Shown here in pieces: positions 1 through 41,222 of a DNA stretch of 64,000 nt. Below the pieces are notes generated by a model, which was not told the DNA's origin, searched no databases, and saw only the letters and a program-made list of their open reading frames with translations. Source of the stretch: a virus; IMG/VR virus record IMGVR_UViG_3300045988_156148, positions 17,586 through 81,585 of that record; one strand, 5' to 3'. The first letter of the stretch is position 1; every line of letters starts with the position of its first letter. A program made the translations under genes and the position numbers.

Positions 1-3000
1 CTTATTGATTACAGTGGTAATGGCAGAGATATTCAAATGAATAATCTAGCTTGGAAAGGCGGTAGTGGTATTGCAGCTAAACAATACGAAACATTTAAAG
101 ATTGGACTTCTGAATCTTCTTCAACTTCAATAATAACACAAATAGATGAATTTACTAGAATTGTAGAATCTACTACAAATGGTTATTGGGTAAGTAGAAT
201 AAGAAGAGATTCTGATTTAAATAAGGTATATGATGCTATAAATGTTTATCTTTATCAAGATAATAATTCCTTAGTACACGAATGTAAATATGAAGTAGAT
301 GGAATAAAGTATAGTATTCCTATAAATGAATCAGTTGGAAAAGGTTATCATAAGTTAGAAATGTATACTAAAGATAGATATACAGAACTTCCTGAAAATG
401 CAGAAAATGTTGTTCTATCAGAATGGTATTTTCCTAAGTCAACTAAAGGTTCTATAAAATATAGTATTATTCCTAGTTGTAAAGGCGGTATTCTATTAGA
501 CGGTATCAATGACTTCGGTAAGGTGACAGGGATGCCTGTTTACAAAGACTTTACGGTAGTAACCGATAGAGAAATGTTTGCTCATATTGGAGCTATATCG
601 TCAAAGAATAATCCAGGAGCATTTATTGAAACTGCTGGAAATAGTGTTTATAGTTTTGGTCAAGGTACTTCTGGTCTAAATTTTATTTCTACTAGAAGTA
701 TATCTTATTTATCTAAATACTCTTATTGCGGGCAATCTATAACAGCAGGTGCAGCAGAAGATGGCACTGATATGTGGTTAGGAACAATTCGAGATAATGA
801 TTCTCGTTTCTTAAATGGAACTATCTACTCTCTCATGTCTTTCCCATATAGTATGTCCGAGTTCTTGATAGAGCGTCAGTTGAAGAAGCACAAGCTGGGT
901 ACGCTGTATCCGGATATGGTGGAGTTTAGACCTGTTATAAAGAGTAACGTTTTATTAGATGCTAAGCCAACATTCGTTATTCGTGGTACTAGTACTTATC
1001 TAAATGCAGGAGATTATGTTCCTGAAAATAGTCAAATATGGGTAAGTATTAAGATGAATAACATTGCCGATAGAATAACTAAGTTTACTGTTAATGGCAA
1101 AACTATTGATATTCCTGAAAATGCTTATAGTGAAGTCACATTGCAATATGGTTTCCCTTTTGTAATAGATAAGTCTCCACAAAAGATTAGCATAACTATT
1201 GAACAGGATGAAAACTACGTCAAATTTGAACCTGTTATTACAAGTAATGTAGAATATGTTAGGTTAGATTTTTATTTAAATAATTATCAAAAGAGAATTA
1301 ATATAGGCGATTATATACCCAAAGATGCTTATCTTAGAGCCAATCTTTATCTAAAAAATAATGTTGATGAACTTACAGTATTTACATTTAACGGAGTAAA
1401 TATTGGTTATAGAAGAAGTTCCGTTGATGATACGGCTTTTAATATTAGCCAAATATATAATTATGACTCTCCACAAGAAGTAAATATTACTATTGACGAG
1501 TACATCAGATACGAGGACATTGTACAACCTTATCCGGTTCTATTGAGATTCAACGATGAAAACGGTAATGAAGTATCTTGGGGAGACAAAATAAAAGTAG
1601 GTTCCAGTATTACTAGAATAGGTTCTGCCGCTGATTCTAATCTACTTCCTAATATATATAATATATTTGGATTATTATTGAATGACAATCAAGTAACTAG
1701 TTCTAAAGTTATTGTTGAAAAAACAATGGTATTTAAGGCTAAAAGTGCTTATATATTTGACAACAATGAACCGAAAGTAATTTTATCTCCTAGCAGGTTA
1801 AGAATACCTAACCCTAGTTATAAGATACTAGGTCATATCCCCGATATATCCGGTCATGGTAATCATGGAGTTATTCATAACTCGGCTTATGCAGGAGCGA
1901 GCGGAGCCAATGGTTATCCTTATGATTATAATAACTCTAGTTTTTGGTGTGATAGTATTCTGGCAAAAGTTGTAAGTGGAGAGCTAATAGAATATTTTGC
2001 AGTTAAAAACTCAACAGGATTTTCTAATATCACTAGTGGAGTTTATAAAGGAGAGATAAAAGTTACAGGTGTAACTAAAGCCATATCTGAAAACAAGATT
2101 TCACGACTAAGAATATATACTAACTCAACTACTGATAATGAATTAATTGATATTACACAAGACGGAAATTATAACATAGATATAAAAGGCGTTGGTGATG
2201 CTAATCGTGTATTCTTTTATGCTATTCCTAATAATCCAAATGAATCTATTGTCGTACGTTTAACTGAACCTATTTATATAGAACAAGTGGGTGAATACGA
2301 AGGAGCATACTGTCTTGATGGCGTGGACGACTTTGTTGCTATTCCTACTGTTACCGGTGGTAAACAAGTGCTGATGAAAGTGAATTGGCAAAGTGAGGTA
2401 GGAGCTGTGACATTATACGACCAAAGGCTTAATCTACCTGATTATGAATTTGCTATCTATAACGGTACGAGAGACCTCGATGACAATCCTGTTATAGCTT
2501 ATCAGGGAAGAAACAATGGACAAACATATATTGATGGAATCTTGAATAGTAATATTATGGCTTCGGAATTGAAGGCTATTACTCATAATATAACTATTAC
2601 AAATGAGTTGAGTTTGGGAACAAATAATACCTATCCTGTTATTGGTTCAACTAGGTCGAATACTCACTTCGCTCAAATGTCCCTCTACGACTTCATGCTC
2701 TTCGACAACATCTCAACAGACGACAAGATTAAAGAGCTGAATGAGTATGTAGGTATTGAAGCTAAGGTAGAATTACCACCTTATTATTGGGATGCTTATG
2801 GCAAAACCAATCTTGATGCAGATAAGGCAACTATTCAACAAAGAGGTGTAGCCGTAGGTGATTATGATTTGATTAATAATAACTTTGCTTATGAAGGCAT
2901 GTCAGGTTATAATGGTTATCCTGTTGTGTTTGGTGCTAGTAAAACTTGGGCGAATGAATCTAACGGATATGTTAGTAGTATTACTAGTAATACTATTCAT

Positions 3001-3798
3001 ATTACTAATGTTCTAAATGCAGGTTTAGCTTTATTATATTCTTATGTTAAATATAATGGTAATCTTCAAAATATAAAAGAAATACCTCCTTTTAAGATTG
3101 AAATTAAAGGGTTAGAAGGTAGGTCTAAATTTATATATAAGTATTTAGCAACAAGCGATGCAACTAAGGAAACAAATCTATATCTTGGGAATGGTACTCA
3201 TGAACTACCCAAATCGTTCCTTCCGACAGAGGCTTTGGTTAATGATGCTGTGGTAGGTTTTTCAATAAGTCCAATTGAAGAAGGAGTTACCAATTTTTTA
3301 AGTGATATTACTATTGAAGTTCTTCCTGAATATGAAAATGGTTTAGCTTATGATGGAATAACTGATTATAGCAAGAATGCTAATATTCCTGTGCTTACAG
3401 ATTATACTTATATTTATAAAAGAACTATTATAAATATCCCGATTAATGCAGCAACTTTGTTAAAGGGTGCTGATAAAACTAGTGGCGGTGCATTTATTGC
3501 TGATTATGGAAATAAATGGCAATTTAATTTTGGTCAATATAATATTATACAAGGTATAGCTGATGGAATAAATTGGCAAACTGTCAATAGCTTTAATGGG
3601 ACTTCTATTAATAAGGGGGAGAATACTGATGATAGTGGAATTACAGTAGCTAAATTTAGTAATGGATATACCAGTATGGTATTCTACAAACTAATCCTCT
3701 ATCCGAAAACCATATCGTTACTAGAGATTAACTTCCTAAAGAACCTGATGGAGAAAGACGAAATAATTGATTTAAATAATAAAATATTTATACAATAA
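1..3798 (+). CDS. Large modular tail fibre / receptor-binding protein; 5' end probably lies outside the window
   Basis: ORF from ATG 37, but the frame is open to nt 1 (LIDYSGNGRDIQ), which matches internal motifs (DISGHGNHG.., NFAYEGMSGYNGY). Three LamG/concanavalin-like modules each open with xDGxxDF/Y (LLDGINDF, CLDGVDDF, AYDGITDY) and close with YSLMSF / LYDFMLF / FYKLILY. There are also tandem ~95-aa beta-sandwich repeats (PVIxSNV..GDYxP..FTxNG..SPQxxxITI). Confidence 0.75.
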   Translation, partial: LIDYSGNGRDIQMNNLAWKGGSGIAAKQYETFKDWTSESSSTSIITQIDEFTRIVESTTNGYWVSRIRRDSDLNKVYDAINVYLYQDNNSLVHECKYEVDGIKYSIPINESVGKGYHKLEMYTKDRYTELPENAENVVLSEWYFPKSTKGSIKYSIIPSCKGGILLDGINDFGKVTGMPVYKDFTVVTDREMFAHIGAISSKNNPGAFIETAGNSVYSFGQGTSGLNFISTRSISYLSKYSYCGQSITAGAAEDGTDMWLGTIRDNDSRFLNGTIYSLMSFPYSMSEFLIERQLKKHKLGTLYPDMVEFRPVIKSNVLLDAKPTFVIRGTSTYLNAGDYVPENSQIWVSIKMNNIADRITKFTVNGKTIDIPENAYSEVTLQYGFPFVIDKSPQKISITIEQDENYVKFEPVITSNVEYVRLDFYLNNYQKRINIGDYIPKDAYLRANLYLKNNVDELTVFTFNGVNIGYRRSSVDDTAFNISQIYNYDSPQEVNITIDEYIRYEDIVQPYPVLLRFNDENGNEVSWGDKIKVGSSITRIGSAADSNLLPNIYNIFGLLLNDNQVTSSKVIVEKTMVFKAKSAYIFDNNEPKVILSPSRLRIPNPSYKILGHIPDISGHGNHGVIHNSAYAGASGANGYPYDYNNSSFWCDSILAKVVSGELIEYFAVKNSTGFSNITSGVYKGEIKVTGVTKAISENKISRLRIYTNSTTDNELIDITQDGNYNIDIKGVGDANRVFFYAIPNNPNESIVVRLTEPIYIEQVGEYEGAYCLDGVDDFVAIPTVTGGKQVLMKVNWQSEVGAVTLYDQRLNLPDYEFAIYNGTRDLDDNPVIAYQGRNNGQTYIDGILNSNIMASELKAITHNITITNELSLGTNNTYPVIGSTRSNTHFAQMSLYDFMLFDNISTDDKIKELNEYVGIEAKVELPPYYWDAYGKTNLDADKATIQQRGVAVGDYDLINNNFAYEGMSGYNGYPVVFGASKTWANESNGYVSSITSNTIHITNVLNAGLALLYSYVKYNGNLQNIKEIPPFKIEIKGLEGRSKFIYKYLATSDATKETNLYLGNGTHELPKSFLPTEALVNDAVVGFSISPIEEGVTNFLSDITIEVLPEYENGLAYDGITDYSKNANIPVLTDYTYIYKRTIINIPINAATLLKGADKTSGGAFIADYGNKWQFNFGQYNIIQGIADGINWQTVNSFNGTSINKGENTDDSGITVAKFSNGYTSMVFYKLILYPKTISLLEINFLKNLMEKDEIIDLNNKIFIQ

Positions 3799-3799
3799 A

Positions 3800-4096
3800 A
3801 TGAAAAAGTTAATTGAAAAAATAAAAGCTTGGTATAAAGAAAGCAATAGAGATAAGCACTCATACGTGGGTGCTATCATCTATTGTACTTTTTTTGTAGT
3901 AGGTTTTGCATTAGGGATAGAACTTATTCCTAATGCTGTTATCGCTACAGGAGCTACAGTAGCTTCTATGATGTCAGCTGAATATAAAGACAAGGAACAT
4001 GGCTCTTTGTTTGATTGGCTAGATATTCTTGCGGGTATGACATATCCTATACTGATTGATATTGTTTGTTTAATTATTTACTTAATTATAAAATAA
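3800..4096 (+). CDS. Small membrane protein (2-3 predicted TM segments), holin-like size
   Basis: 98 aa with hydrophobic stretches (YVGAIIYCTFFVVGFALGIELI, ILAGMTYPILIDIVCLIIYLII). Starts 2 nt after the upstream stop. Confidence 0.5.
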   Translation: MKKLIEKIKAWYKESNRDKHSYVGAIIYCTFFVVGFALGIELIPNAVIATGATVASMMSAEYKDKEHGSLFDWLDILAGMTYPILIDIVCLIIYLIIK

Positions 4097-4097
4097 G

Positions 4098-4454
4098 ATG
4101 AAATATATTGTATTACCAAAATCCGTTTTAGACGAAGTTCCACAAGAGACGTTAAATGAGTTGCATTTAGTACCTAGAGTAAGCACAGATGGGGAATCTG
4201 TATTAATGAAAGTCGCAAATTACGAATTACTTTTCCCTCTTGCTGTAACTCTTCCTGAACTAGGAGAAGATACTCCTGTTGAACCAATATATCCATATCC
4301 TACTTATGAAGGAGATGCCCTAAATACTTTATTGCAAAGTAGCGAATGGACTAGTCAAGATAATTCTGTTTTAGGCGAATCTATTCTTGAATCTCCAACG
4401 GTGAAAACTACTTCTTCTAAAACAAGAAAGAGTACAAAAAATACCGTGTTATAA
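4098..4454 (+). CDS. Hypothetical protein
   Basis: Tightly packed co-directional ORF. No motif recognised. Confidence 0.5.
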   Translation: MKYIVLPKSVLDEVPQETLNELHLVPRVSTDGESVLMKVANYELLFPLAVTLPELGEDTPVEPIYPYPTYEGDALNTLLQSSEWTSQDNSVLGESILESPTVKTTSSKTRKSTKNTVL

Positions 4455-4464
4455 AAAATATTAT

Positions 4465-4472
4465 TATCTTTG
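4465..4472 (+). promoter_or_regulatory. Bacteroidota-type -7 box TATCTTTG
   Basis: Matches TAnnTTTG, 31 nt upstream of ATG 4503, in an intergenic gap. Confidence 0.35.
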
Positions 4473-4502
4473 TATAAATATTAACAAAGAAATATAGAAA
4501 TA

Positions 4503-4892
4503 ATGGATTGGTCAAATATTATACAATTAGCATTAGCTATAGGGGGAAGTGGGGGAATATTGACAGTATTGATAGCTTTCTATAAAGCACGTCCTGAAAA
4601 AATATCCTACGAGGTAAAAACTCTTCGTGAAATAATAGAAACTATAAAGAAAGAGAGAGAAGAGGACAAGCTAGAGGATGCACAAGAAAGGCAAAAATTG
4701 GAACGAAGATTAGGTGAAATAGAAATAACCAATTCTGTATTACAGAAAGCTATTCAACAATGGGTTAAATGTTCCCATTTACCAAAAGATGCAGTGTGTC
4801 CCGTATCTGATTTCGTAGACCGAGCCGAAGAGCTAATAACTAAAAAGGTAGAAGCGTTGCACCAATCCATGGAAGAAAATAATAAAGAATAA
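4503..4892 (+). CDS. Membrane-anchored coiled-coil protein
   Basis: N-terminal TM segment (IIQLALAIGGSGGILTVLIAF) followed by a charged helical region. Confidence 0.55.
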   Translation: MDWSNIIQLALAIGGSGGILTVLIAFYKARPEKISYEVKTLREIIETIKKEREEDKLEDAQERQKLERRLGEIEITNSVLQKAIQQWVKCSHLPKDAVCPVSDFVDRAEELITKKVEALHQSMEENNKE

Positions 4893-4897
4893 AGAAC

Positions 4898-4929
4898 CCC
4901 ACTACGCAAATGTCGATAAACGTAGTGGG
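4898..4929. terminator. 9-bp stem hairpin, possibly a bidirectional terminator
   Basis: CCCACTACG (4898-4906) pairs with CGTAGTGGG (4921-4929). A T-rich tract follows on the - strand and an A-run follows on the + strand. Confidence 0.4.
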
Positions 4930-5003
4930 AAAAAATGTCCTTATCCAAAGCCATATAATAAACACATACAAATATACGGCTTTATTTTAAAATAGCAAAT
5001 ATA

Positions 5004-8000
5004 ATGGTAGAAAAGTTACTTATATATACTGATGATGAGGAATTAGGCGTTATATCTTTCCCTAAAGATGGAACGCAAGCTGCCCTTAGTAGTTATACAT
5101 TCACCGAGGGAAGAATGGGTAGCGTAAATATAAGTAGCAGTCCCATGTATCCTAAGTGCTTGGATGATGAATGGACGCAGAGGGAATTTGTGGAATTTAG
5201 GGGAGAAAGATATTGGATTTTAGATACACCTACTTCATCTAAGTCAAATACAGATCTAAGATATAAACATGAGCTTGTATTTAAATCCGATAGAACTAAA
5301 CTGGATAATACTTATTTCTTTGATGTAGTATCTCCTGATGCAGGTGATGTAGACCAATTTGTCAGCAATAGTACAAAGTTCACCTTCTTTGGAGATATTG
5401 CAGAGTTTGCAACAAGATTGAATTACTCTTTACAATACAGTGGAGTAGGTTATTCTGTTGTAATTGACGAAGGTATATCCTCCGAAGCTAAACTAATGTC
5501 GTTTGAGGACAAGTATTTTAGTGAAGTTCTACAAGAAGTATTTAATGTTTATGAACTACCTTATTATTTTGTCGGTAAGGTAATCCATATCGGATTTACT
5601 AATAATGCTATTACTCATACATTTAAATACGGTTATGATAGGGAACTACTGACAATAACCAAAACAAACGCAAACTATAAAATAGTTAATCGCTGTACAG
5701 GTATCGGTAGTACTGAAAATATTCCTTATTACTATCCAAATGATACAAGAAAAGGAGATGTCAGGGCTGTTGCCGGAGAAGATAATATCTCAATTAAAAC
5801 AGAAGATATACAAATCGTAAATAACGATTTATATAAAGAGAAGGTTTCATTGGAAGAAAAGGTTGAATTTAAAAAAACTAAGCTTCCTATTACTACTCAA
5901 TTATACATTAATTTAAATGAGCAATACCCTTATACACAAGCGGTAGAGACTGTTCCTACTATTAGAGATGGAGCTACAGCGAATTTTAAATGGTTTGAAA
6001 CGTCTTATAATTATTATGCAATAATAGATTTATCTAATGAAGCTACTATTTATTTAACTTTAAAATTATGGGCTAACTTAAAATATTCCTATATACAAAA
6101 GGGCGGTATTATATTGGGAGAAAAGCAAGCTGCAAGAAAAATGAATTTTGCTTCATTTTCTTTATATAAAAGAAATGAATCAGATACAGATTGGGTTTTA
6201 ATTAAAGCCGACCAAAAGTCTGAAACGACAGTATCGTTTAATCTTAATGAAGGAACAAATAAATTAAAAATAGTAGGTTCTTATTCTACCTTAGTAAATG
6301 TTAGTGATTATTATGTATATGGGAATCAAAAAGCTTTTCTTGAAATAAGTAGAGAATCAACAGCAGAATATAACTTATGGAGTTATAAAGATAATACTGT
6401 TAGTCTTAGCGATATTGGTATATATATTACAAAAACACCTTCTATTGGAGATTACTTTGTTCAAAAGCAAGTTGAAGGGAATTATATGATTACTTCTCCT
6501 AATCTATTGCCATCTATATACAGAGAGACGTTTGGTGCAGAACGATTCTATGACGCAAAAAACCAAACCTATATAAATCCTGATACAGAAAGCTACTACG
6601 ACTTCGAGAACCCTTATACGGAAGGTAATCCTAAGGAAATGATTGTTTCTTTTGATTATATCAAGCCGACTATCAAAGGAATTGAGAATGCAGCAGGATA
6701 TAAAATAGGAGAAATATTAGATGTAGCTTTTGATGATGATGATAATGATGAAATAGACCCTAACACAAATGAATACGAACATAAATATTTCTACATAAAG
6801 CTAAGAAAGTTTGATGGGGATTATGGCTTTAATCTCTTTGACCAAGCTATCGTAGGTAGTGATATGACCATCTCAATGACGAGTGGTAATTGTGCTGCTT
6901 GTAATTTTGTCATATCCGTATTAGAAGTAGAAGATAAAGACAATAATATCACAATATTCAAGAATCCTGTACAAGTGGATTCTAGTGGCAATATTGTAAC
7001 AGGTAGTGAGGATGATAAATGGAATGAGGCAAATATTCAGCCTCAACAACAAGATACAACCACAAATGAGGTATGGATTAGGGTAAGCAAAGATGATGAT
7101 ACATTCGGAGTTGTAATGCCATCTAACAACCGCAACTATAAGCCTAAATCAGGAGATTCGTTTGTTCTGTTACATATTGATTTGCCTAAACAATATATCC
7201 TTAATGCAGAGAATGAGCTTAAAGAAGCTATCATTAAGTATATGGCTGCCAATAATAGTGAAAAATTCAACTTCTCTATTAACTTTAAGCGTACATTCTT
7301 TGCTGAATATCCTGAAATGCTTTCACAGATTGATGCTAATGCACGATTGCAGATAGAGTATAACAACAAGCTGTATGAACTGTATGTCAGTCAATACACT
7401 TATAAGGTAAATGAGACAGACCCTCTTCCTGAAATTACGGTAGAATTATCCGATACCATAACGATACGTAAAGGTAATGTCCAAAAATCTATTGATGCTG
7501 TAAAACAGGATATTATGTCGTCTATCGGTTCTATCGACTTTTTAAAGATGGGACTGAAATACTTTATTAGAAAAGATGTTGATGATACAGCTAACGGACA
7601 TATAATATTTAAAGACGGGATTTATGTTACTGGGAATAGCGAGGAAGGAGCTACCGATTTCCTGTGTGAAGGTGGCATAGATAATATTCAAGAGGGTAAC
7701 GGAGATTTCATACAGGAAGATTCCGGGATTATCAAAGCTGTAGAAATTCCTCAAACTCTTGGTAGTTTATATAATGTCAATCCTATTGTAGATGAGATTG
7801 CTACAGAAGATGTCGTACTTGTAAAAAAAGTTGGTTCTACGAAATGGACGCGGGAAAGAAAGAGTATGACAGAAGGCATAACTGATGCCCCAAGCAATAA
7901 CATCTTATATGGTCGTAAAAACAAAGAGTGGATTAAAGTTCCTGGCACTCCGACAAAACTTCCTAATCCTAATGCTCTTTCTTTTACAGGTGCAATACAA

Positions 8001-9549: not shown

Positions 9550-10077
9550 ATGAAATACTGGAAGCAAGGATTTTACGATGAACCAATAGAGGGTTCGGTA
9601 GAAATAACAGACGAATATTGGCAATCATTACTTGATGGGCAAAGCGATGGAAAGGAGATAGTAGAAGATGTAAATGGTCGTCCTATCCTTCAAGAACACA
9701 TATTTACTTTAGAAGAAGTAAAAGAGCATACATTATACAATATTCAGAGGTACGATAAATCTGAATATGTAAATAGTTTCTTGCTCAATGGAGATAGTAT
9801 TTGGTTAAGCAAAGATTTACGAACTTCCATAATGAATGCTGTTGCGATTAAAAAGAGCAGAAACATTAAAACATCAAGTATTTGGTATAATCAGAAAGAG
9901 TATGTTCTCCCTGTTGATTTTATATTAGATATGTTAGATGATGTGGAGATATACGCTGATACTTGTAATAGCGTTACACAAAGACATATCGCAAATGTTA
10001 TGGCTATGACAGATATAGATGAAATTAATAATTATGACTATACTTTAAATTATCCAACTAAAGTGAACTACCCATGA
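9550..10077 (+). CDS. Tail-fibre assembly / chaperone-like protein (DUF4376-like C-terminus)
   Basis: The N-terminus MKYWKQGFYDEPIEG..YWQSLLDGQSDGKEI resembles tail-fibre assembly proteins, and the gene sits right after a fibre gene. Its last codons (VNYP) and stop come from the IS right end. Confidence 0.5.
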   Translation: MKYWKQGFYDEPIEGSVEITDEYWQSLLDGQSDGKEIVEDVNGRPILQEHIFTLEEVKEHTLYNIQRYDKSEYVNSFLLNGDSIWLSKDLRTSIMNAVAIKKSRNIKTSSIWYNQKEYVLPVDFILDMLDDVEIYADTCNSVTQRHIANVMAMTDIDEINNYDYTLNYPTKVNYP

Positions 10078-10200
10078 GCTAAAAGCTCATGGGTTTCGTG
10101 GGCTGCGCAAGTAACCTCGCTCATATCTCCACACGCGTAAATTTCGGTCGTTCCAACCGTATTTATGTTCCGAAAAGCAAATCTCTTGATGTTATTAGCT
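10063..10200 (-). ncRNA. Putative omega-RNA (reRNA) scaffold overlapping the tnpB 3' end and the right end
   Basis: In known TnpB systems the guide RNA derives from the tnpB 3' end plus the right end. Two hairpins are present here, and the last 71 nt are conserved in an orphan copy at 37406-37476. The 5' extent is unknown. Confidence 0.4.
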
Positions 10201-11267
10201 GCAAGGAAATCTCTATCGTGAATTGAGCCACATTCTGGGCAAGTCCATTCACGCATGGCGAGTGTTAGGTTGTGATTAATATATCCGCAAGTACACATTT
10301 TAGAACTTGGTTCAAAGCGACCAATACGAAGAATATTAACTCCTCGCTCTTTTGCCTTGTATTCTAACAGTGTATTGAATGTTCCTATGGCAATATCCGA
10401 TAGTGATTGCGCAAGGTGGTGGTTCTTTATCATCCCTTTTACATTCAAGTCCTCAAGACAGATTGTATCATAGTTATTCACAAGATATGATGTAACCTTA
10501 TGCAAGAAGTCATTTCTTCTATTAGTTACTTGCTCATGCGCTAAAGCCAATTTTCTTCTTGCTTTACCTCTATTCTTAGAACCTTTTGTCTTGTGCAACA
10601 AAGAGCGTTGAAGTTTCTTGACTTTATCAAGTGATTGTTTTAGATGTTTAGGATTAGGTATTTCAGTACCATCTGAAAGGACAGCAAATGTTTTAATCCC
10701 AAGGTCTATACCAACTGCTTTGTTCTCACAAATTGGTTTCATAGATACATCGGGTTCATCCACTTCCACAAGGATAGATATGAAATACTTACCTGTTGAT
10801 GTTCTTGTAATAGTAGAAGTTTTAACTATACCATCAAAGGTGCGATGTAATATTGCTTTAATTCCACTTTTGAATTTAGGAATGAATATTCTTCCATTCT
10901 CGAAATCAACCTTTGTATTTTGAGGTATAGAAAAACTTTGCTTGCTATCTTTTTTTGATTTGAATCTTGGAAAGCCTTTATGCTCCCTAAAGAACCTAGC
11001 GTAGGCAGAATCAAGATTAGCAAGCGATGCTTGAAGGGAAAGCGAATTGACTTCTTTTAGCCAACAATACTCATCTGACTTTTTCATATTCGGCAGATCT
11101 GCTTGAATATCGAAGCGAGAAAGATTAGTTTTATCAGTTTGAAAAGCCTTCACTTTCTTAGCAAGAGCATAATTATAGATGAAACGACAAGAACCAAGAT
11201 GCTTTGCTATAAGCACCTTTTGCTCCTCATTCGGATATAATCTATATTTATATGCTCTATATTTCAT
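10068..11267 (-). CDS. tnpB: RNA-guided endonuclease TnpB (IS605 OrfB family), apparently intact
   Basis: Starts MKYRAYKYRLYPNEEQ at the internal ATG 11267; the longer ORF to 11354 is an upstream extension. RuvC-I GIDLGIK, RuvC-II CLEDLN, zinc finger CTCG..CPECG and RuvC-III HDRDFLAANNI are all present. Confidence 0.9.
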   Translation of the reverse strand: MKYRAYKYRLYPNEEQKVLIAKHLGSCRFIYNYALAKKVKAFQTDKTNLSRFDIQADLPNMKKSDEYCWLKEVNSLSLQASLANLDSAYARFFREHKGFPRFKSKKDSKQSFSIPQNTKVDFENGRIFIPKFKSGIKAILHRTFDGIVKTSTITRTSTGKYFISILVEVDEPDVSMKPICENKAVGIDLGIKTFAVLSDGTEIPNPKHLKQSLDKVKKLQRSLLHKTKGSKNRGKARRKLALAHEQVTNRRNDFLHKVTSYLVNNYDTICLEDLNVKGMIKNHHLAQSLSDIAIGTFNTLLEYKAKERGVNILRIGRFEPSSKMCTCGYINHNLTLAMREWTCPECGSIHDRDFLAANNIKRFAFRNINTVGTTEIYACGDMSEVTCAAHETHELLAHG

Positions 11268-11271
11268 ACCA

Positions 11272-11279
11272 CAAAGATA
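11272..11279 (-). promoter_or_regulatory. -7 box TATCTTTG, 4 nt upstream of the tnpB ATG (near-leaderless)
   Basis: The forward strand reads caaagata. The same TATCTTTGTG..ATG arrangement is found at the second tnpB (60260-60274). Confidence 0.4.
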
Positions 11280-11417
11280 ATATAATTTAGCGAAACGCAA
11301 AAGAACTTCTAAAAATTTTGTGTTCACGAAAAAAAATGTACCTTTACAACGCAATTCATCCGCTTAAGTTAAAGACTTATGAGATTTCTTGCTATTTTTA
11401 TTTAAAAATTAATTACA

Positions 11418-11858
11418 ATGAAAAAAATATTTTATGATTCAAAGGTAGCTAAAGCTATTTTATTTGATGGTTATTCAACAATAACAATATTTGCTTGGGT
11501 ATTGACTGTATACAAGAAGTTGACACAAGAAACGATAAACCATGAATGTACTCATGCCAGACAGTGGATTGAACTTACTGTAGCAGGAGGATTATTTATG
11601 TGGCTTGGAATGCTAATATTTAATTATTCTGCATGGTATCTTGCTATTTCTCCGATTGTATTCTATTTATGGTATGGTTTAGAATATTGCATAAGAAGAA
11701 TTATGGGAATATTTGCTTCGGGTGGCAACAAACAACATACTGCATATCGTGAGGTGTCATTTGAACAAGAAGCTCGATTGGCTGAAAAAGATAATAATTA
11801 TCTTGAAAACAGCCATTATTATGCATGGACGAAGTTTATAATCAAAACTAGAAAGTAA
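11418..11858 (+). CDS. Membrane protein with HExxH-like motif
   Basis: NHECTHARQW motif plus 3-4 hydrophobic segments. Confidence 0.5.
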   Translation: MKKIFYDSKVAKAILFDGYSTITIFAWVLTVYKKLTQETINHECTHARQWIELTVAGGLFMWLGMLIFNYSAWYLAISPIVFYLWYGLEYCIRRIMGIFASGGNKQHTAYREVSFEQEARLAEKDNNYLENSHYYAWTKFIIKTRK

Positions 11859-17378: not shown

Positions 17379-17883
17379 TTTTCTCCTCTTTATTTGTTTC
17401 TTCTTTTAAATCTTCTTCAAAGGTTATAGGCTGACGCTTATAATTTTTCATGTTGTTCTTAAATTCATTTCTGCTAATTTGTTCTTTAATGCAAACATTG
17501 AAGAAATATTTTTTAAGATCATCATTCGTCATGCCATTAAGGTATTCTTCATCATCAGATGTTCTGGAAGAGATGAAATCTATAATATCCTTTTTATTTT
17601 CCACGGCAGGGATAAATTCATCTTTCAAATATTCATAGGGATATATCTCCACAAGTTCATGTGCTATACCTAATCCCGGCAATGTTTTTGTTACATTTAC
17701 CTCATTCCATGCGAAAAAATCATGATATGCAAGAGCATAGTCCATGTGTCCATTTTTTCTTAAAATCTTAACAATCGCCCTAGCCCATACCTGTTCTTTA
17801 TCGTTGGGTTCAGGAAGAGATGAAACGCCACTATACATTAGCATCTCCAACAATGATTCTTCTGTTCTGCTTTTAGTTCTCAT
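17275..17883 (-). CDS. Hypothetical protein
   Basis: Co-directional packed ORF. The 3' 104 nt overlap the next ORF. Confidence 0.5.
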   Translation of the reverse strand: MRTKSRTEESLLEMLMYSGVSSLPEPNDKEQVWARAIVKILRKNGHMDYALAYHDFFAWNEVNVTKTLPGLGIAHELVEIYPYEYLKDEFIPAVENKKDIIDFISSRTSDDEEYLNGMTNDDLKKYFFNVCIKEQISRNEFKNNMKNYKRQPITFEEDLKEETNKEEKNGHEEIGNDGESERRSGQENRQTNNRGRKSKAEK

Positions 17884-34526: not shown

Positions 34527-35099
34527 ATGAATAAGTTTGTTTCAAAACGTGGTGAGATATGGAAAGATATACCAAAATTTGAGGGCGTATATCAAATATC
34601 AAATTTGGGGCGTGCAAGAAGTTTGAAAAAGAATAGGATATACTTGTTAAAAAATAACATAGACACTAACGGATATTATTATATCATCCCATACGTAAAT
34701 AAAAAAACGTATACTCATTATAAAATACATAGATTAGTTGCATTATTGTTTGTAGACGGATATAAAGAAGGTTTAGTTGTTAACCATAAAGACGGTAATA
34801 AATTGAATAATAATGCATCTAACCTTGAATGGGTGACAAGTTCTTATAATAATAAACACGCTTTTGATATAGGACTCAAGAGGAAAGGAGTACACGAAAA
34901 TTGTAGAAAAGCTTGCATAGAAAAAACAAGCATTAAAGTTAAGTGTATCGACATTAATACGGGTGTAGAAAAAACATTCCGTTCAATGAAACAAGCTGCC
35001 AAAGAAATAGGCGGGACAGGTGCGGGTATTAAATATAGCATAAAGAATAATAAGCCATACAAAAAAAGATATTTATTTTATGAAATTTATATACGCTAG
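34527..35099 (+). CDS. HNH homing endonuclease (NUMOD4 + HNH_3 type)
   Basis: EIWKDIPKFEGVYQISNLGRARS..HRLVALLF..VNHKDGNKLNNNASNLEWVT. Paralog of 48437..49195. Confidence 0.8.
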   Translation: MNKFVSKRGEIWKDIPKFEGVYQISNLGRARSLKKNRIYLLKNNIDTNGYYYIIPYVNKKTYTHYKIHRLVALLFVDGYKEGLVVNHKDGNKLNNNASNLEWVTSSYNNKHAFDIGLKRKGVHENCRKACIEKTSIKVKCIDINTGVEKTFRSMKQAAKEIGGTGAGIKYSIKNNKPYKKRYLFYEIYIR

Positions 35100-35823
35100 A
35101 TGTTCAACGGAAAAACAAGACTTTGAACAACAAAAAGAATGTATAAAACAGTATTTGAAAAGAATAGGAGACAATTCAGATATTAAAGAAGTTGTAGAAA
35201 AAGTTTCAGGGACTATAAAACATACAAAACGAAAACTGCAAGAAGTATTAGAAATGTGCAAGAGTGGAGACACTATATATATATCTGAATTGTCTCGATT
35301 AGGTAGAAGTATGAATGATTTATTTTCTATTGTTTCTTATTGTGGAGAAAAAGATATAACTATAATACAATGCAAAGACGGAACTATAATAGAAAATAAA
35401 TCAATAGGTGGAAAAGCCCTTCTTTTTGCATTATCATTAGCCGCTGAAATTGAAGTAGAAAACATACGTCAGCGTACACGTATGGGACTAGCCGCAAGAA
35501 AAGCGAAAGGTATGCAAACAGGCGGAACAAATGAATTGTGGGGAAAGAATAGTTCTACAGATAGAATAGTTTCAATAAATAAGATGCACGATGAGTCCGC
35601 AAACAAAAGGCGAGAAAATGCACGTGTTAATGAAAGTAATGTGTTTTTTTGGGCTTTCATTACTGATTGGATAAAAGATAAGGGAGAGCCTAGAAACTAC
35701 GAAATTTGGGGAGATATTGCACAAAAATTGAATAATCTGAATCAAAAGACAGCTACAGGAATGGAATATAATTCAGTTCGTGCGGCTGCAATGTATCGTA
35801 AACTTAAAAAAATAATGAAATAA
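35080..35823 (+). CDS. Small serine recombinase (resolvase/invertase family)
   Basis: IYARCSTEKQ (catalytic Ser), GDTIYISELSRLGRS and ENIRQRTRMGLAARKAKG match the resolvase catalytic domain. A ~100-aa C-terminal region may contain an HTH. Confidence 0.8.
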   Translation: MKFIYARCSTEKQDFEQQKECIKQYLKRIGDNSDIKEVVEKVSGTIKHTKRKLQEVLEMCKSGDTIYISELSRLGRSMNDLFSIVSYCGEKDITIIQCKDGTIIENKSIGGKALLFALSLAAEIEVENIRQRTRMGLAARKAKGMQTGGTNELWGKNSSTDRIVSINKMHDESANKRRENARVNESNVFFWAFITDWIKDKGEPRNYEIWGDIAQKLNNLNQKTATGMEYNSVRAAAMYRKLKKIMK

Positions 35824-36156: not shown

Positions 36157-36360
36157 ATGAGCAAAAGAAATTTAGTAGAGAATTATTTCAGGAATAAATA
36201 TCCTGATGAAAGGTATCAGTTCAAAGCATATCATACTATAGAGGATATGTTTGGAGTCAAAGGGAACAATCTTTATGTCGTTGAATTTATAGATGTGAAG
36301 ATGAGATACCCTAAAACATTGGAGTTAAGAATTAAAGAAAATGAACTATTAAATATTTGA
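36157..36360 (+). CDS. Hypothetical protein
   Basis: Packed co-directional ORF. Confidence 0.5.
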   Translation: MSKRNLVENYFRNKYPDERYQFKAYHTIEDMFGVKGNNLYVVEFIDVKMRYPKTLELRIKENELLNI

Positions 36361-36363
36361 GTT

Positions 36364-36567
36364 ATGGAAAGCAAAGAGGATATTATTAGAAAATATATCA
36401 AAGGAATAGTTTCTATTGAAAGCAATGGGAAAGTTATGTATGTTTCCACAAAGAATTGCTTTGCTAGAACAAGTACCTTAGAATTTCTAAAAGAGAGATT
36501 AAATTGCAAAGAAATATTGGTAGAAATAAAAGCAAAAGATGGTTTATTAATGTATGTAATTGAATAA
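36364..36567 (+). CDS. Hypothetical protein
   Basis: Packed co-directional ORF. Confidence 0.5.
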   Translation: MESKEDIIRKYIKGIVSIESNGKVMYVSTKNCFARTSTLEFLKERLNCKEILVEIKAKDGLLMYVIE

Positions 36568-37001: not shown

Positions 37002-37205
37002 ATGTGGATAAGAATACAGAATCAACGATTGAAAGACGCAAGTATTAAAGAATACAAAGGACGTGGTAATAGTGTATCAAGCGGTAAATACTGCATTGAA
37101 ATGAAGTACGGGAACGGAATAAGGTATTTCTACTTTGACAATGAAGTAGAATATGATAGAGCTTTGTTTCGGCTAGATGAAATCTTAAAAGTACAAGAGG
37201 TTTAA
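37002..37205 (+). CDS. Hypothetical protein
   Basis: Packed co-directional ORF. Confidence 0.5.
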   Translation: MWIRIQNQRLKDASIKEYKGRGNSVSSGKYCIEMKYGNGIRYFYFDNEVEYDRALFRLDEILKVQEV

Positions 37206-37246: not shown

Positions 37247-37381
37247 ATGACAGTACAAGAACTAATTGATATTTTATCTGAAATTAAAGATAAAAGCAAA
37301 CCTGTGACAATAGACATTTTGGATGATGAAGTGAAAGACGTCATAGAGCGTGAAGATTGTGTTGAACTTTATAATTATTGA
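37247..37381 (+). CDS. Small hypothetical protein (44 aa)
   Basis: MTVQELIDILSEIKDKSKPVTIDILDDEVKDV.. Falls below the track cutoff. Confidence 0.35.
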   Translation: MTVQELIDILSEIKDKSKPVTIDILDDEVKDVIEREDCVELYNY

Positions 37382-37405
37382 ATATGATAGTTGAAGCTTT
37401 AAGCT

Positions 37406-37476
37406 TGTGGAGATATGAGTGGGGTTACTCACTCAGCCCACGAAGCCCACAAACTGAAGATTTGTGGGTAGTTCAC
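37406..37476 (+). mobile_element. Orphan IS right end / omega-RNA 3' fragment homologous to the 3' end of the 10-kb tnpB element
   Basis: TGTGGAGATATGAG..GGTTACT..CAGCCCACGAA(G/A)CCCA..TGGGTAGTTCAC aligns with the reverse complement of 10063-10133. Both hairpins are retained with compensatory changes. Homology ends exactly at GTTCAC in both copies. Confidence 0.7.
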
Positions 37477-37572
37477 AAGTTATATAAATGTTAAATACAC
37501 ATATTCTCTTGCACATCTCAAAAATAAAGAGGATATTTGCAATGTATCTGAAACGTAGCAATGGATGATATA

Positions 37573-37711
37573 TGATTATATTATTTTTTTTTGATTATAA
37601 AGTTTTTTTTGATTATATAACCGTATGTTAACAATTGCTACCGTTGTATTTATACAATGTCTGTTAACACGGTAACAATAGAACCGTACTGATAGAGTTT
37701 CAGCTACGGTT
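37573..37711. repeat. Iteron-like repeats upstream of the wHTH/Rep-like gene
   Basis: GATTATA x3 (37574, 37593, 37611), each after a T-tract. AACCGTA x3, two direct at 37619 and 37682 and one inverted at 37705-37711. GTTAACA x2. Inverted ATTG(C/T)TACCGT pair. Palindrome TTGTATTTATACAA at 37644-37657. Confidence 0.6.
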
Positions 37712-37733: not shown

Positions 37734-38489
37734 ATGAAAAGACTAAGTAGGAAAAGATATAATGAAATAATATCCGCTACCGATGAACGGAAAGCGATAG
37801 CCCTACTTATTTTTATAAAACAAAAGTTTAGATCATCAGTCGTTCTTAATTTTTCTTATTACAAACTATCCAAAATTACAGGTCTGCATAAAAATACAGT
37901 GAAGAAGCGGTTAGAAGCTCTTGGAAGCATGGAACTATTAGATTTTGTTGGAAAGAACAATAAACATCTTCTTTTTAAATCGGTTCGTGCTGCTAAGTCA
38001 AATGTAAGATTAGATGGATTGGATTTATCAAATATCAAGGCGATTGAAACCGGATTGCAAGCATTATTTATAACGGAAGAACAAAGACGGAAAAATTACG
38101 TCAATCATCAAGTTATTAAAGGGACTAAGCCGAAAGGACATTTATCTAAATCAAAGTACAGAGAATGGAAGAAGGCTAAAAAGTTCTGCACCATGCATGG
38201 ATTGACTGAATTTAAAGACAATGGGATTTCGTTTGATACATTGGCTAAAAGAATGAAAACAAGCAAAAGTAAAGTTGCTAAAGCGATTTCTTTTGGTGAA
38301 AAAATTGGAATTTTAAGAAGGAATCATAACTTTAAGGTTGTTTGCCCTTTTGATTCTAAAATGGATGCTTTGTTATGTTTGAAACATAACTTTCAAGGTA
38401 GGCTTAAAGTTATTGACAACAACTTAGTATATATCATGTGTAACACGTACTCTGTCATTGGAAGTAAACAGGCGGCTTTAATGTATTAG
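37734..38489 (+). CDS. Winged-helix DNA-binding protein, Rep/initiator-like or regulator
   Basis: LSKITGLHKNTVKKRLEALGSMELLDFVG HTH, and a second HTH-like segment (LAKRMKTSKSKVAKAISFGEKIGIL). Preceded by an iteron field. Confidence 0.5.
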   Translation: MKRLSRKRYNEIISATDERKAIALLIFIKQKFRSSVVLNFSYYKLSKITGLHKNTVKKRLEALGSMELLDFVGKNNKHLLFKSVRAAKSNVRLDGLDLSNIKAIETGLQALFITEEQRRKNYVNHQVIKGTKPKGHLSKSKYREWKKAKKFCTMHGLTEFKDNGISFDTLAKRMKTSKSKVAKAISFGEKIGILRRNHNFKVVCPFDSKMDALLCLKHNFQGRLKVIDNNLVYIMCNTYSVIGSKQAALMY

Positions 38490-41012: not shown

Positions 41013-41222
41013 TTGCGTCAAGAAATTGATGCTAAGATTCAAGAAGTGAAAGACCTTCCAGTAAGTCGTGAACGTAGCCTTACTATCACAAAATTACAAG
41101 AAGCTGTTATGTGGCTCGGTATGGATTTGAAACGACTGGGTACTGATAATCCTTATCCATCAAGTAAAGACCCTTCAACGGGAACAGTTATAGAACCTAC
41201 CGCTGATGGATTGAAGCTATGA
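41013..41222 (+). CDS. Hypothetical protein (non-ATG start)
   Basis: The track start is TTG, and there is no ATG in the open frame from 40944. The LQEAVMWLGMDLKRLG..NPYP motif recurs in phage proteins of unknown function. Confidence 0.45.
   Translation: MRQEIDAKIQEVKDLPVSRERSLTITKLQEAVMWLGMDLKRLGTDNPYPSSKDPSTGTVIEPTADGLKL

Follow-up and report, generated by a model that had tools for sequence, protein, structure and literature searches.

The closest described counterparts of the locus analysed here are the ISGst2-type elements of Geobacillus stearothermophilus, which encode only tnpB, are non-autonomous and carry a subterminal hairpin at each end (Meers et al. 2023, PMC10055086). They are bordered by a transposon-adjacent motif (TAM) of 5 nucleotides (nt), rich in A and T, on the left and by a transposon-encoded motif (TEM), TTCAC, on the right, which differ only at positions 3 and 5. 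Their guide RNA is encoded across the 3' end of tnpB and the right end (RE), and derivatives that resemble palindrome-associated transposable elements (PATEs) or consist of the omega-RNA only occur (PMC10055086). All of these features recur in the elements considered below, with TTTAA and TTCAC again differing at positions 3 and 5. The subject is a solo right end at 37403–37476 (+ strand) of a 64,000-nt stretch of phage DNA (IMG/VR record IMGVR_UViG_3300045988_156148, positions 17,586 to 81,585), referred to as the window. It differs from the ISGst2 case in that it lies in a gut phage with TTTAA as TAM, that the TTCAC apparently misused is internal, 43 nt 5' of the foot of the right-end hairpin, and that the outcome is a scar of right-end sequence instead of the capture of flanking DNA; it is known from sequences alone.

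The guide RNA can be compared with that of ISDra2 (Nakagawa et al. 2023, PMC10097598; PDB 8H1J, 8BF8, 8EXA). The TnpB found here, whose disordered C-terminal tail overlaps the RNA, is clearly homologous to that of ISDra2. ISDra2 needs a 116-nt scaffold, of which stem 1 and a pseudoknot (-5..-3 with -105..-103) form part; these and stems 2–4 are resolved, and Cas12 guide RNAs share the conserved pseudoknot core (PMC10097598). The present family shares this topology, in which the stem 1 loop pairs with -5..-3, stems 2 and 3 are nested, the stem 4 loop lies near -20 and the guide follows. Unlike ISDra2, the family scaffold measures ~97 nt rather than 116 nt, and the solo right end keeps only the equivalents of stems 2–4.

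PATEs are gene-less IS200/IS605 derivatives, and the 74 nt likewise derive by internal deletion from an IS605-family element. Unlike PATEs they consist of right-end sequence only, with no left end, left-end hairpin or left-end guide. The PATE-like solo end proposed in the original prediction is thus correct only by half; true mini-elements with both ends are found in sister loci (L020, L024 and, within L032-L048, L032-34, L046 and L048). In IS608 of Helicobacter pylori (mechanism of Barabas et al. 2008) the left cleavage site reportedly lies 19 nt 5' of the foot of the left-end hairpin and the right one 3' of the right-end hairpin at a distance of a few nt, and the cleavage motifs are said to be read by a 4-5-nt DNA guide 5' of each hairpin (AAAG/TTAC and GAAT/TCAA). 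The same layout is present here, with left cleavage 19 nt 5' of the hairpin foot and right cleavage a few nt 3' of the hairpin; by analogy the pairings would be AAAT/TT(T)AA and GAAG/T(T)CAC, with motifs that differ from those of IS608.

The solo right end and its parent lineage

The 74 nt are, with a probability that we put at about 80%, an inactive relic of a tnpB-only IS200/IS605 element, namely the last 74 nt of a member of the L037/L184 lineage, with a left deletion that we infer to be the work of TnpA (Y1 transposase). They have the shared boundary, subterminal hairpin, TEM and DNA guide of an IS200/IS605 right end, the short guide GAAG standing just 5' of the hairpin foot. A complete element is not present: TTTAA is followed directly by element position -74, a left end is absent, and genes are not carried. 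The gene content around the locus agrees with the original prediction that no tnpB lies beside it. The same prediction named a deletion remnant among its possible explanations, and this is the one that held, because a sister phage (L184) has a full-length insertion sequence (IS) at the identical junction. The remnant is thus what a deletion has left of an element once at this site.

IMG/VR was scanned for the hairpin type of the remnant, which gave 22 loci. The last 74 nt of L037, GCTTGTGGAGATATGAGTGGGGTTACTCACTCAGCCCAAGAAGCCCACAAATCTTCAGTTTGTGGGTAGTTCAC, agree with the remnant at 66 of 74 positions, and the differences amount to one substitution (C at 37441, A in the parent) and an inverted 7-nt loop, with identical stems. 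The loop, CTGAAGA (37454–37460), is the exact reverse complement of TCTTCAG, the loop of all relatives. The upstream hairpin of the remnant recurs as an exact 25-mer in 17 metagenome contigs, 14 of them with a terminal hairpin of the L037 type (altered in one contig by a single substitution in the stem) and three of the L103 type. By sequence, the remnant is the right end of the L037/L184 lineage, a sister of the tnpB element that is resident elsewhere in the window (10063–11401, minus strand). L037 tnpB and the resident tnpB are 94.6% identical over 1,008 nt, and the core of the resident TnpB is 96% identical to the TnpB of the parent element.

The remnant had been described as a 71-nt copy of the resident right end. 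The alignment of 37406–37476 (+) with the reverse complement of 10063–10133 is indeed gapless, with 54 of 71 positions identical. The bases just before this block are GCT in the remnant and GCG in the resident copy, and their inclusion gives the true homologous unit of 74 nt (37403–37476), so that the homology is real and the length is revised; the remnant and the last 74 nt of the resident element then agree at 56 positions (~76%). When the shared blocks were combined into a degenerate pattern of 39 nt, it matched exactly twice in the window and in none of 100 dinucleotide-preserving shuffles. Both copies end in ...TGGGTAGTTCAC, that is ...GGGTAGTTCAC, beyond which the flanks are unrelated (AAGTTATATAAATG for the remnant, TTTAGTTGGATAA for the resident copy). 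The predicted boundary after GTTCAC is the same in every related element retrieved. Megablast of the two regions against the INPHARED phages gave no match.

The stems of the two right ends differ broadly in the manner first described. In the terminal hairpin the arms are CCCACAAA/TTTGTGGG in the remnant and CCCATGAG/CTCATGGG in the resident copy, so that the interior differs and stays paired, with 3 of 8 pairs changed on both sides. The pairing given earlier for the upstream hairpin (GAGCG..TGCGC) was only roughly right. In the correct register, UGAGUGGG..CUCACUCA in the remnant stands against UGAGCGAG..CUUGCGCA in the resident copy, which retains the one double change proposed (U:A to C:G); the remaining pairs that differ are changed on one side only, and the resident copy has one broken pair (A.G). 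Outside these hairpins lies a third helix (CUUGUGG/CCCA[A/C]G), which is absent from the earlier description. The fold energy of the remnant is -30.6 kcal/mol (z = -3.9 against shuffles). Since the stems of the remnant are those of its parent, these differences lie between two IS lineages and did not arise in the remnant. Two readings are ruled out: that the remnant is a copy of the resident element, given 76% identity to the resident right end and near-identity to that of L037/L184, and that it underwent compensatory evolution in place, given stems identical to those of its own parent lineage.

The right-end module is more divergent than the rest of the two elements. The last 74 nt of the resident element (10063–10136) and of L184 (2995–3068) are 77% identical, and the rest of the elements 94%. 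The value for the right end is also lower than the identity at third codon positions of the TnpB core (86%), which points either to evolution faster than at synonymous sites or to exchange between lineages. A swap of right-end modules was considered; relaxed constraint explains most of the difference, because third-codon identity is itself 86%.

The insertion site and its alleles

The window is a phage genome segment of 31% G+C. Its genes include those for a DnaB-like primase/helicase, a sliding clamp, an SbcC-like protein and HNH endonucleases. By tblastn the first of these shares 64% identity with its counterpart in Bacteroides phage C3_41T2LP, and at least one of the related phage contigs (82-87 kb) found by exact-protein look-up is labelled human gut metagenome; the phage is a human-gut phage that probably infects Bacteroides. 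Further relatives were retrieved via the HTH_36 protein encoded next to the remnant.

The insertion target is a 45-aa open reading frame (ORF), a paralogue of the ORF preceding it, which is complete in the empty-site sister loci and truncated in the window. Its start reads ATGACAGTTGAAGCTTTAA^TTGAACTACTTG... in the empty-site allele (^ marks the junction), followed downstream by ATGGTT-type repeats and then (T/C)(T/C)(T/C)AA^AAGTTATATAAATG. In the window only its first 6 codons (ATGATAGTTGAAGCTTTAA, 37384–37402, +) are left, where sisters read MTVEALIELLEEVEDKTRDVKFNDGWSDYLVEIVETEATKDVILL*. The empty site GCTTTAA^TTGAACTAC is found in L019, L016, L171 and others, so that the phage sequence GAAGCTTTAA is followed by TTGAACTAC in the empty alleles and by the left end AGGAAAATTAGC... 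in L184. The full-length IS of L184 (1745–3068; 1,324 nt) stands exactly after GCTTTAA in the orientation of the remnant and encodes a TnpB of 399 aa. At its left end AGGAAAATTAGCAAGAAAT leads into a hairpin, and its interior and right end read ...GAAATTCAC^GCTTGTGG...GGGTAGTTCAC^TTGAACTAC.

Two further alleles are reduced. L020 carries an insert of 50 nt, composed of the first 19 nt of the left end, a hairpin and the tail TAGTTCAC; the deletion runs from the CCCACAA repeat in the hairpin of the left end to that in the hairpin of the right end. L024 has the same 50 nt joined on the right to AAGTTATATAAATG, a flank deletion. In the window the TAM or left cleavage site TTTAA (37398–37402, +), which is phage sequence, is followed directly by the remnant (37403–37476, +; element positions -74 to -1) and then by AAGTTATATAAATG, with all element sequence from the left-end boundary to -75 missing. 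The flank AAGTTATATAAATGTT (37477–37492, +) occupies what would be the guide position were the remnant a working omega-RNA; the guide of an omega-RNA at the original site is TTGAACTACTTGAAGA. Over the 3,756 nt compared, the window and Logan contig ERR912139_520 have the same sequence, and the 74-nt allele was confirmed in one assembly among the matches listed (~30 related phage contigs examined). Close relatives thus show at one locus the empty site, the intact element, the fusion of left-end and right-end hairpins, and the right-end stub.

The right side of the locus has changed as well. Some 170 nt of phage DNA to the right of the remnant, comprising the rest of the small ORF and the ATGGTT-type repeats, are gone. 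The AAGTTATATAAATGTT flank is preceded in several sisters by a second TTTAA (site 2), ~170 nt downstream of site 1; this is the case in L021-23, L014 and L178, and in L184 it follows TCCAA. Upstream of the remnant the window is 99.8% identical to L024, and downstream it is closest to L020 and L022 (~95.7%), with L024 at only 82%.

The 45-aa ORF is an insertion hot spot, with three different IS605-family elements in different relatives: the L037-type tnpB element after TTTAA (L184), a tnpA+tnpB element that follows TTTAT and is oppositely oriented (L015, ~3903–5640), and an unrelated element with a 406-aa TnpB (L176/L185; L185 ~1750–3090).

Structure of the right end and competence as a guide RNA

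The structure was assessed in an alignment of 15 distinct right-end sequences, the remnant and 14 from elements or longer remnants. Five helices are supported: P1 (-97..-83), a pseudoknot, P2, P3 and P4. The pseudoknot joins the GAA loop of P1 to UUC at -5..-3, and the two are jointly changed to GAG/CUC in two lineages (L087, L090). Pairing holds in 96.1% of cells across the family, with double changes at 16 of 32 pairs, a level reached by 0 of 500 shuffles; slid controls were 32-40% paired. For the family as a whole, covariation is real and strong. The view that structure is under family-wide selection, as omega-RNA and for P4 additionally as a DNA hairpin bound by TnpA, is correct; selection on the remnant itself does not follow from the covariation, its stems being those of the parent. 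The alignment gives a compact ~97-nt scaffold with ISDra2 topology for a phage-borne TnpB.

Within the remnant, P2 (37404–37442, +) is the outer helix enclosing P3 and pairs CUUGUGG (37404–37410) with CCCACG (37437–37442). The only substitution in the remnant breaks its pair 37405(U)-37441(C). At this pair (29-67 of the alignment) RNAalifold and pair counts give 8 rows with GC and 6 with UA, and the single row counted as 'other' is the remnant. P3 (37416–37435, +; UGAGUGGG-GUUA-CUCACUCA) is equivalent to stem 3 of the ISDra2 omega-RNA and is intact, with double compensatory changes at 6 of 8 pairs across the family. P4 (37446–37468, +; CCCACAAA-CUGAAGA-UUUGUGGG) is the terminal hairpin, equivalent to stem 4, and by analogy is the right-end subterminal hairpin that TnpA binds as DNA; its stem is intact, its loop is inverted, and 5 of 9 pairs have compensatory changes across the family. 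The tail TAGTTCAC (37469–37476, +) ends in the TEM or right cleavage site TTCAC (37472–37476), of which UUC (37472–37474) is the 3' strand of the family pseudoknot.

The remnant starts one base before P2, and P1 with its GAA loop, the partner of the tail, is absent upstream of 37403. In ISDra2 this part of the scaffold is required (PMC10097598), and because stem 1 and the pseudoknot are absent it is very unlikely that the remnant works as a guide RNA. It is also immobile because it has no left end. By comparison with ISDra2 it would not be competent as a guide scaffold either, and the trans-acting guide module suggested at first is unlikely. No intrinsic terminator was found at 37403–37500 (+), where the tail reads UAGUUCACAAGUUAUA with no U-tract, and a promoter scan at the locus gave background level only. 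In the window Rfam at the gathering threshold and ARAGORN (tRNA) gave no matches, and the would-be guide AAGTTATATAAATGTT has no target there besides its own position.

Micro-inversion of hairpin loops by template switching at perfect inverted repeats is known in plastid non-coding DNA. The pattern in the remnant is the same, a 7-nt loop reverse-complemented between unchanged 8-bp arms, and differs in that it lies in a transposon end. A second right end with an apparently inverted loop (ATAAAGA, against TCTTTAG in its family) was noted in L085 at ~3170–3205 (IMGVR_UViG_3300045988_139132), where the foot and TEM are degenerate (TGAG, TTCAT); inversion of the P4 loop at a perfect hairpin may be recurrent.

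Junctions and formation of the remnant

The left junction of the remnant is exact, the phage TAM TTTAA being followed by element position -74. In the parent this position is preceded by TTCAC, identical to the pentamer that ends the element, and the L184 element contains only two internal copies of TTCAC, at -979 and -74. In the IMG/VR scan the pentamer before GCTTGTGG differed by lineage (TTCAC, TTAAC, TCTAC, TTTAC and even TTTAA). The TTTAA of the window was therefore checked against the empty-site alleles and is phage sequence. The same 74 nt also follow TTTAA at an unrelated metagenome locus (L126), which reads GGGTTTAA^GCTTGTGG... In elements of the L001 type TTCAC occurs internally just once, at -107, and this copy is where two 107-nt remnants with different flanks (L005 and L011) both start, preceded by TTTAAT and TTTTAG. 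A further remnant (L035) begins after CTCAC, a junction of the -44 type, and is preceded by TTTAA. A random endpoint would fall on such a site at ~1-2 of 1,330 positions per event. A search of IMG/VR for more -74 remnants with GCTTGTGGAGATATGA returned only full-length elements and chance coding matches.

An IS of the L037/L184 lineage inserted after TTTAA in the 45-aa ORF. For what followed, the junctions suggest this course of events. TnpA, supplied in trans, would have cut correctly after the TAM and, on the right, at the internal TTCAC, a pseudo-cleavage site identical to the true right-end motif, and the donor would have been resealed as TTTAA^GCTTGTGG... Later decay would account for the substitution that breaks the covarying pair and for the loop inversion, the latter probably by template switching at the hairpin. 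Cutting by TnpA at the TAM and the internal TTCAC, followed by resealing, is the account that we favour by a modest degree. Published work offers a precedent, in that GstTnpA, given a mutated TEM, makes the excision at another sequence that matches TTCAC, the wild-type TEM, and the spacing between motif and DNA guide is flexible (PMC10055086). The present junctions suggest that the documented tolerance of TnpA for alternative TTCAC boundaries also acts inside elements in nature.

Several points weigh against this account. The TnpA step is read from junction sequences only, and the published alternative-TEM events lie downstream of the right end, not upstream of the hairpin (PMC10055086). A 52-nt remnant (L008) fits neither junction rule, which implies that deletions independent of TnpA also occur. 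The loss of 170 nt of flank is not explained by the TnpA step at the left junction. It may reflect a TnpA cut after the second TTTAA, recombination between IS copies at the two TAM sites, or plain deletion; recombination between co-infecting phages with IS copies at the two sites is as plausible here as a TnpA event, and in L184, which holds the parent in situ, the second site is TCCAA and not TTTAA. As regards the structure, the pseudoknot is supported by one compensatory change and L166 looks like a counter-example, and a residual role of the remnant as RNA is formally conceivable.

The main alternative to the TnpA step is an ordinary illegitimate deletion, by recombination or replication slippage, with TTTAA and TTCAC as microhomology or chance. 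TAM and TEM do share TT.A., which amounts to weak microhomology, slippage between the 7-nt CCCACAA repeats of both hairpins accounts best for the 50-nt fusions, and the L008 junction matches no motif. Set against this, junctions are exact on both sides in five remnants (window, L126, L005, L011, L035) of three types (-74, -107, -44), in parent lineages two of which have just one and two internal TTCAC sites, and 2-3 nt of microhomology would not fix an endpoint to the nucleotide at the left-end boundary. An ordinary deletion is accordingly judged improbable, if still worth considering. It is more doubtful still that the 74 nt inserted themselves as a small TnpA-mobilised circle, in the manner of a PATE-like non-autonomous transposon. 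The occurrence at the unrelated L126 locus, the TTCAC on both sides of the unit in the parent and the abundance of true mini derivatives with both ends in the family would suit such an origin. Without a left end or left-end guide, targeting to TTTAA is left unexplained, the full-length parent at the same left junction in a sister makes deletion in situ far more parsimonious, and the right flank is not the site-1 flank expected of a simple insertion.

A functional role for the remnant is equally hard to sustain. Transcribed with its flank in the phage plus-strand operon, it might guide the resident TnpB to cleave TTTAA-AAGTTATATAAATGTT in rival sister phages that have not suffered the deletion. 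The sense orientation relative to the surrounding genes, the retention of three covarying helices with an exact junction between right end and flank, and the 96% identity of the two TnpB cores are in keeping with this, as are the several sisters with TTTAA directly before AAGTTATATAAATG, where the window has GTTCAC and would be self-immune. Such guiding is nevertheless very unlikely, as P1 and with it the covarying pseudoknot/stem-1 core, part of the 116-nt ISDra2 scaffold (PMC10097598), are missing, the sole substitution disrupts a covarying P2 pair, promoter signal does not exceed background, and the allele was confirmed in a single assembly among the matches listed. Least probable is a domesticated phage structure (a stabiliser, attenuator or replication-origin hairpin) upstream of the initiator-like HTH_36 gene. 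The fold is stable (z = -3.9) and the position is intergenic, ahead of a putative replication or regulatory protein, but most sister phages have other sequence in place of the remnant, there is no U-tract, and the sequence is wholly accounted for as IS-derived.

The scar should differ from a precise excision product in its fate. Under the published model of TnpB retention the precise product, TTTAA^TTGAACTAC..., is cleavable by TnpB–omega-RNA from sister copies. The scar should escape renewed cutting by TnpB, because GTTCAC and not the TAM precedes the guide-matching flank. Such scars would drop the left end and tnpB (1.25 kb) with the stub still parting the TAM from that flank, and the recurrence of scars at -74 and -107 in phage genomes would be explained. 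It is tentatively proposed, as a possibility rather than a probability, that right-end-only scars are footprints of a decay pathway in which TnpA excises from the TAM to an internal TTCAC, the product escaping TnpB retention and being immune to re-homing. Solo ends, PATEs and omega-RNA-only derivatives of the IS605 family are already known and relics are commonplace; a modest novelty lies in the allelic series from gut phages, exact to the nucleotide, and in the recurrent start of right-end-only scars at internal TTCAC sites.

Other short derivatives were seen among the relatives. The 107-nt remnants of L005 (minus strand, last 107 nt) and L011 (9233–9339) keep the predicted P1–P4 and pseudoknot and, unlike the 74-nt stub, could be omega-RNA-only guides. 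The 50-nt hairpin fusion occurs also at an unrelated site after CATTTTAA in L036/L042 (IMGVR_UViG_3300010356_002493, 3300009687_000036), where GAAG and not GAAAT precedes the hairpin. This points to an independent recombination between left and right ends, and a single-hairpin mini-element may arise repeatedly.

The resident tnpB element

The resident IS605-family element (10063–11401, minus strand; 1,339 nt) is non-autonomous, with tnpB as its only gene. The tnpB gene (10068–11267, minus strand) is a 399-aa ORF with Pfam OrfB_IS605, Cas12f-like TNB and HTH_OrfB domains, and its product matches ISDra2 TnpB with E = 2e-75. The left end begins at 11401, next to the TAM TTTAA at 11402–11406, and reads TTTAA^ATAAAAATAGCAAGAAAT followed by a hairpin, as placed by comparison with the matching left end of the full-length relative L013; TTTAA adjoins the left end in the resident element, L013 and L036 alike. 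The right end stops at 10063 with GTTCAC and contains the 74-nt module homologous to the remnant (10063–10136, minus strand). P1 of the resident omega-RNA (CGGUUG-GAA-CGACCG) lies at 10145–10159 (minus strand), and its GAA loop pairs with the tail UUC to form the pseudoknot.

A search by tblastn with the TnpA of L015 found no tnpA in the window, and TnpB searches of GTDB genomes gave distant or contaminant-like matches only, from which no host was assigned. The start codon of ORF 11418–11858 (+) lies 16 nt downstream of the resident element, and ORF 9550–10077 (+) runs with its last codons into the right end of the element, which provides its stop. The guide of the resident element itself would be TTTAGTTGGATAATTT. 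The same insertion is present in the sister contig IMGVR_UViG_3300045988_161850 (L006/L084).

Neighbouring genes and other features of the window

The remnant lies between a 44-aa ORF upstream (37247–37381) and the gene for the HTH_36 protein downstream (37734–38489), and is in the sense orientation of both. The region between the remnant and the HTH_36 gene (37560–37680) contains the direct repeat TTTTTTTGATTATA twice and the motifs CCGTATGTTAACAATTGCTACCGTTG / GTTAACACGGTAACAATAGAACCGTAC. Iteron-like ATGGTT/AAGGTT repeats are present in sister genomes and deleted in the window, and this region could be an origin or operator. Further upstream are tandem paralogous ORFs of 67 aa (36157–36360, 36364–36567 and 37002–37205), of which many more are found in sister loci; their number and order vary among the sister phages and the region is highly mosaic. 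At 34527–35823 (+) an ORF for an HNH/NUMOD4 endonuclease (190 aa) precedes and overlaps that of a serine recombinase (Resolvase domain, 247 aa), a pair conserved in sister phages. Finally, the 69-aa product encoded at ~41013–41222 (+), equivalent to L182 6780–6989, has a weak precomputed Pfam match to Acb2_Tad1_hairpin, the fold of anti-CBASS/anti-Thoeris sponges, and its 81-aa homologues in L180 and L188 match more strongly.

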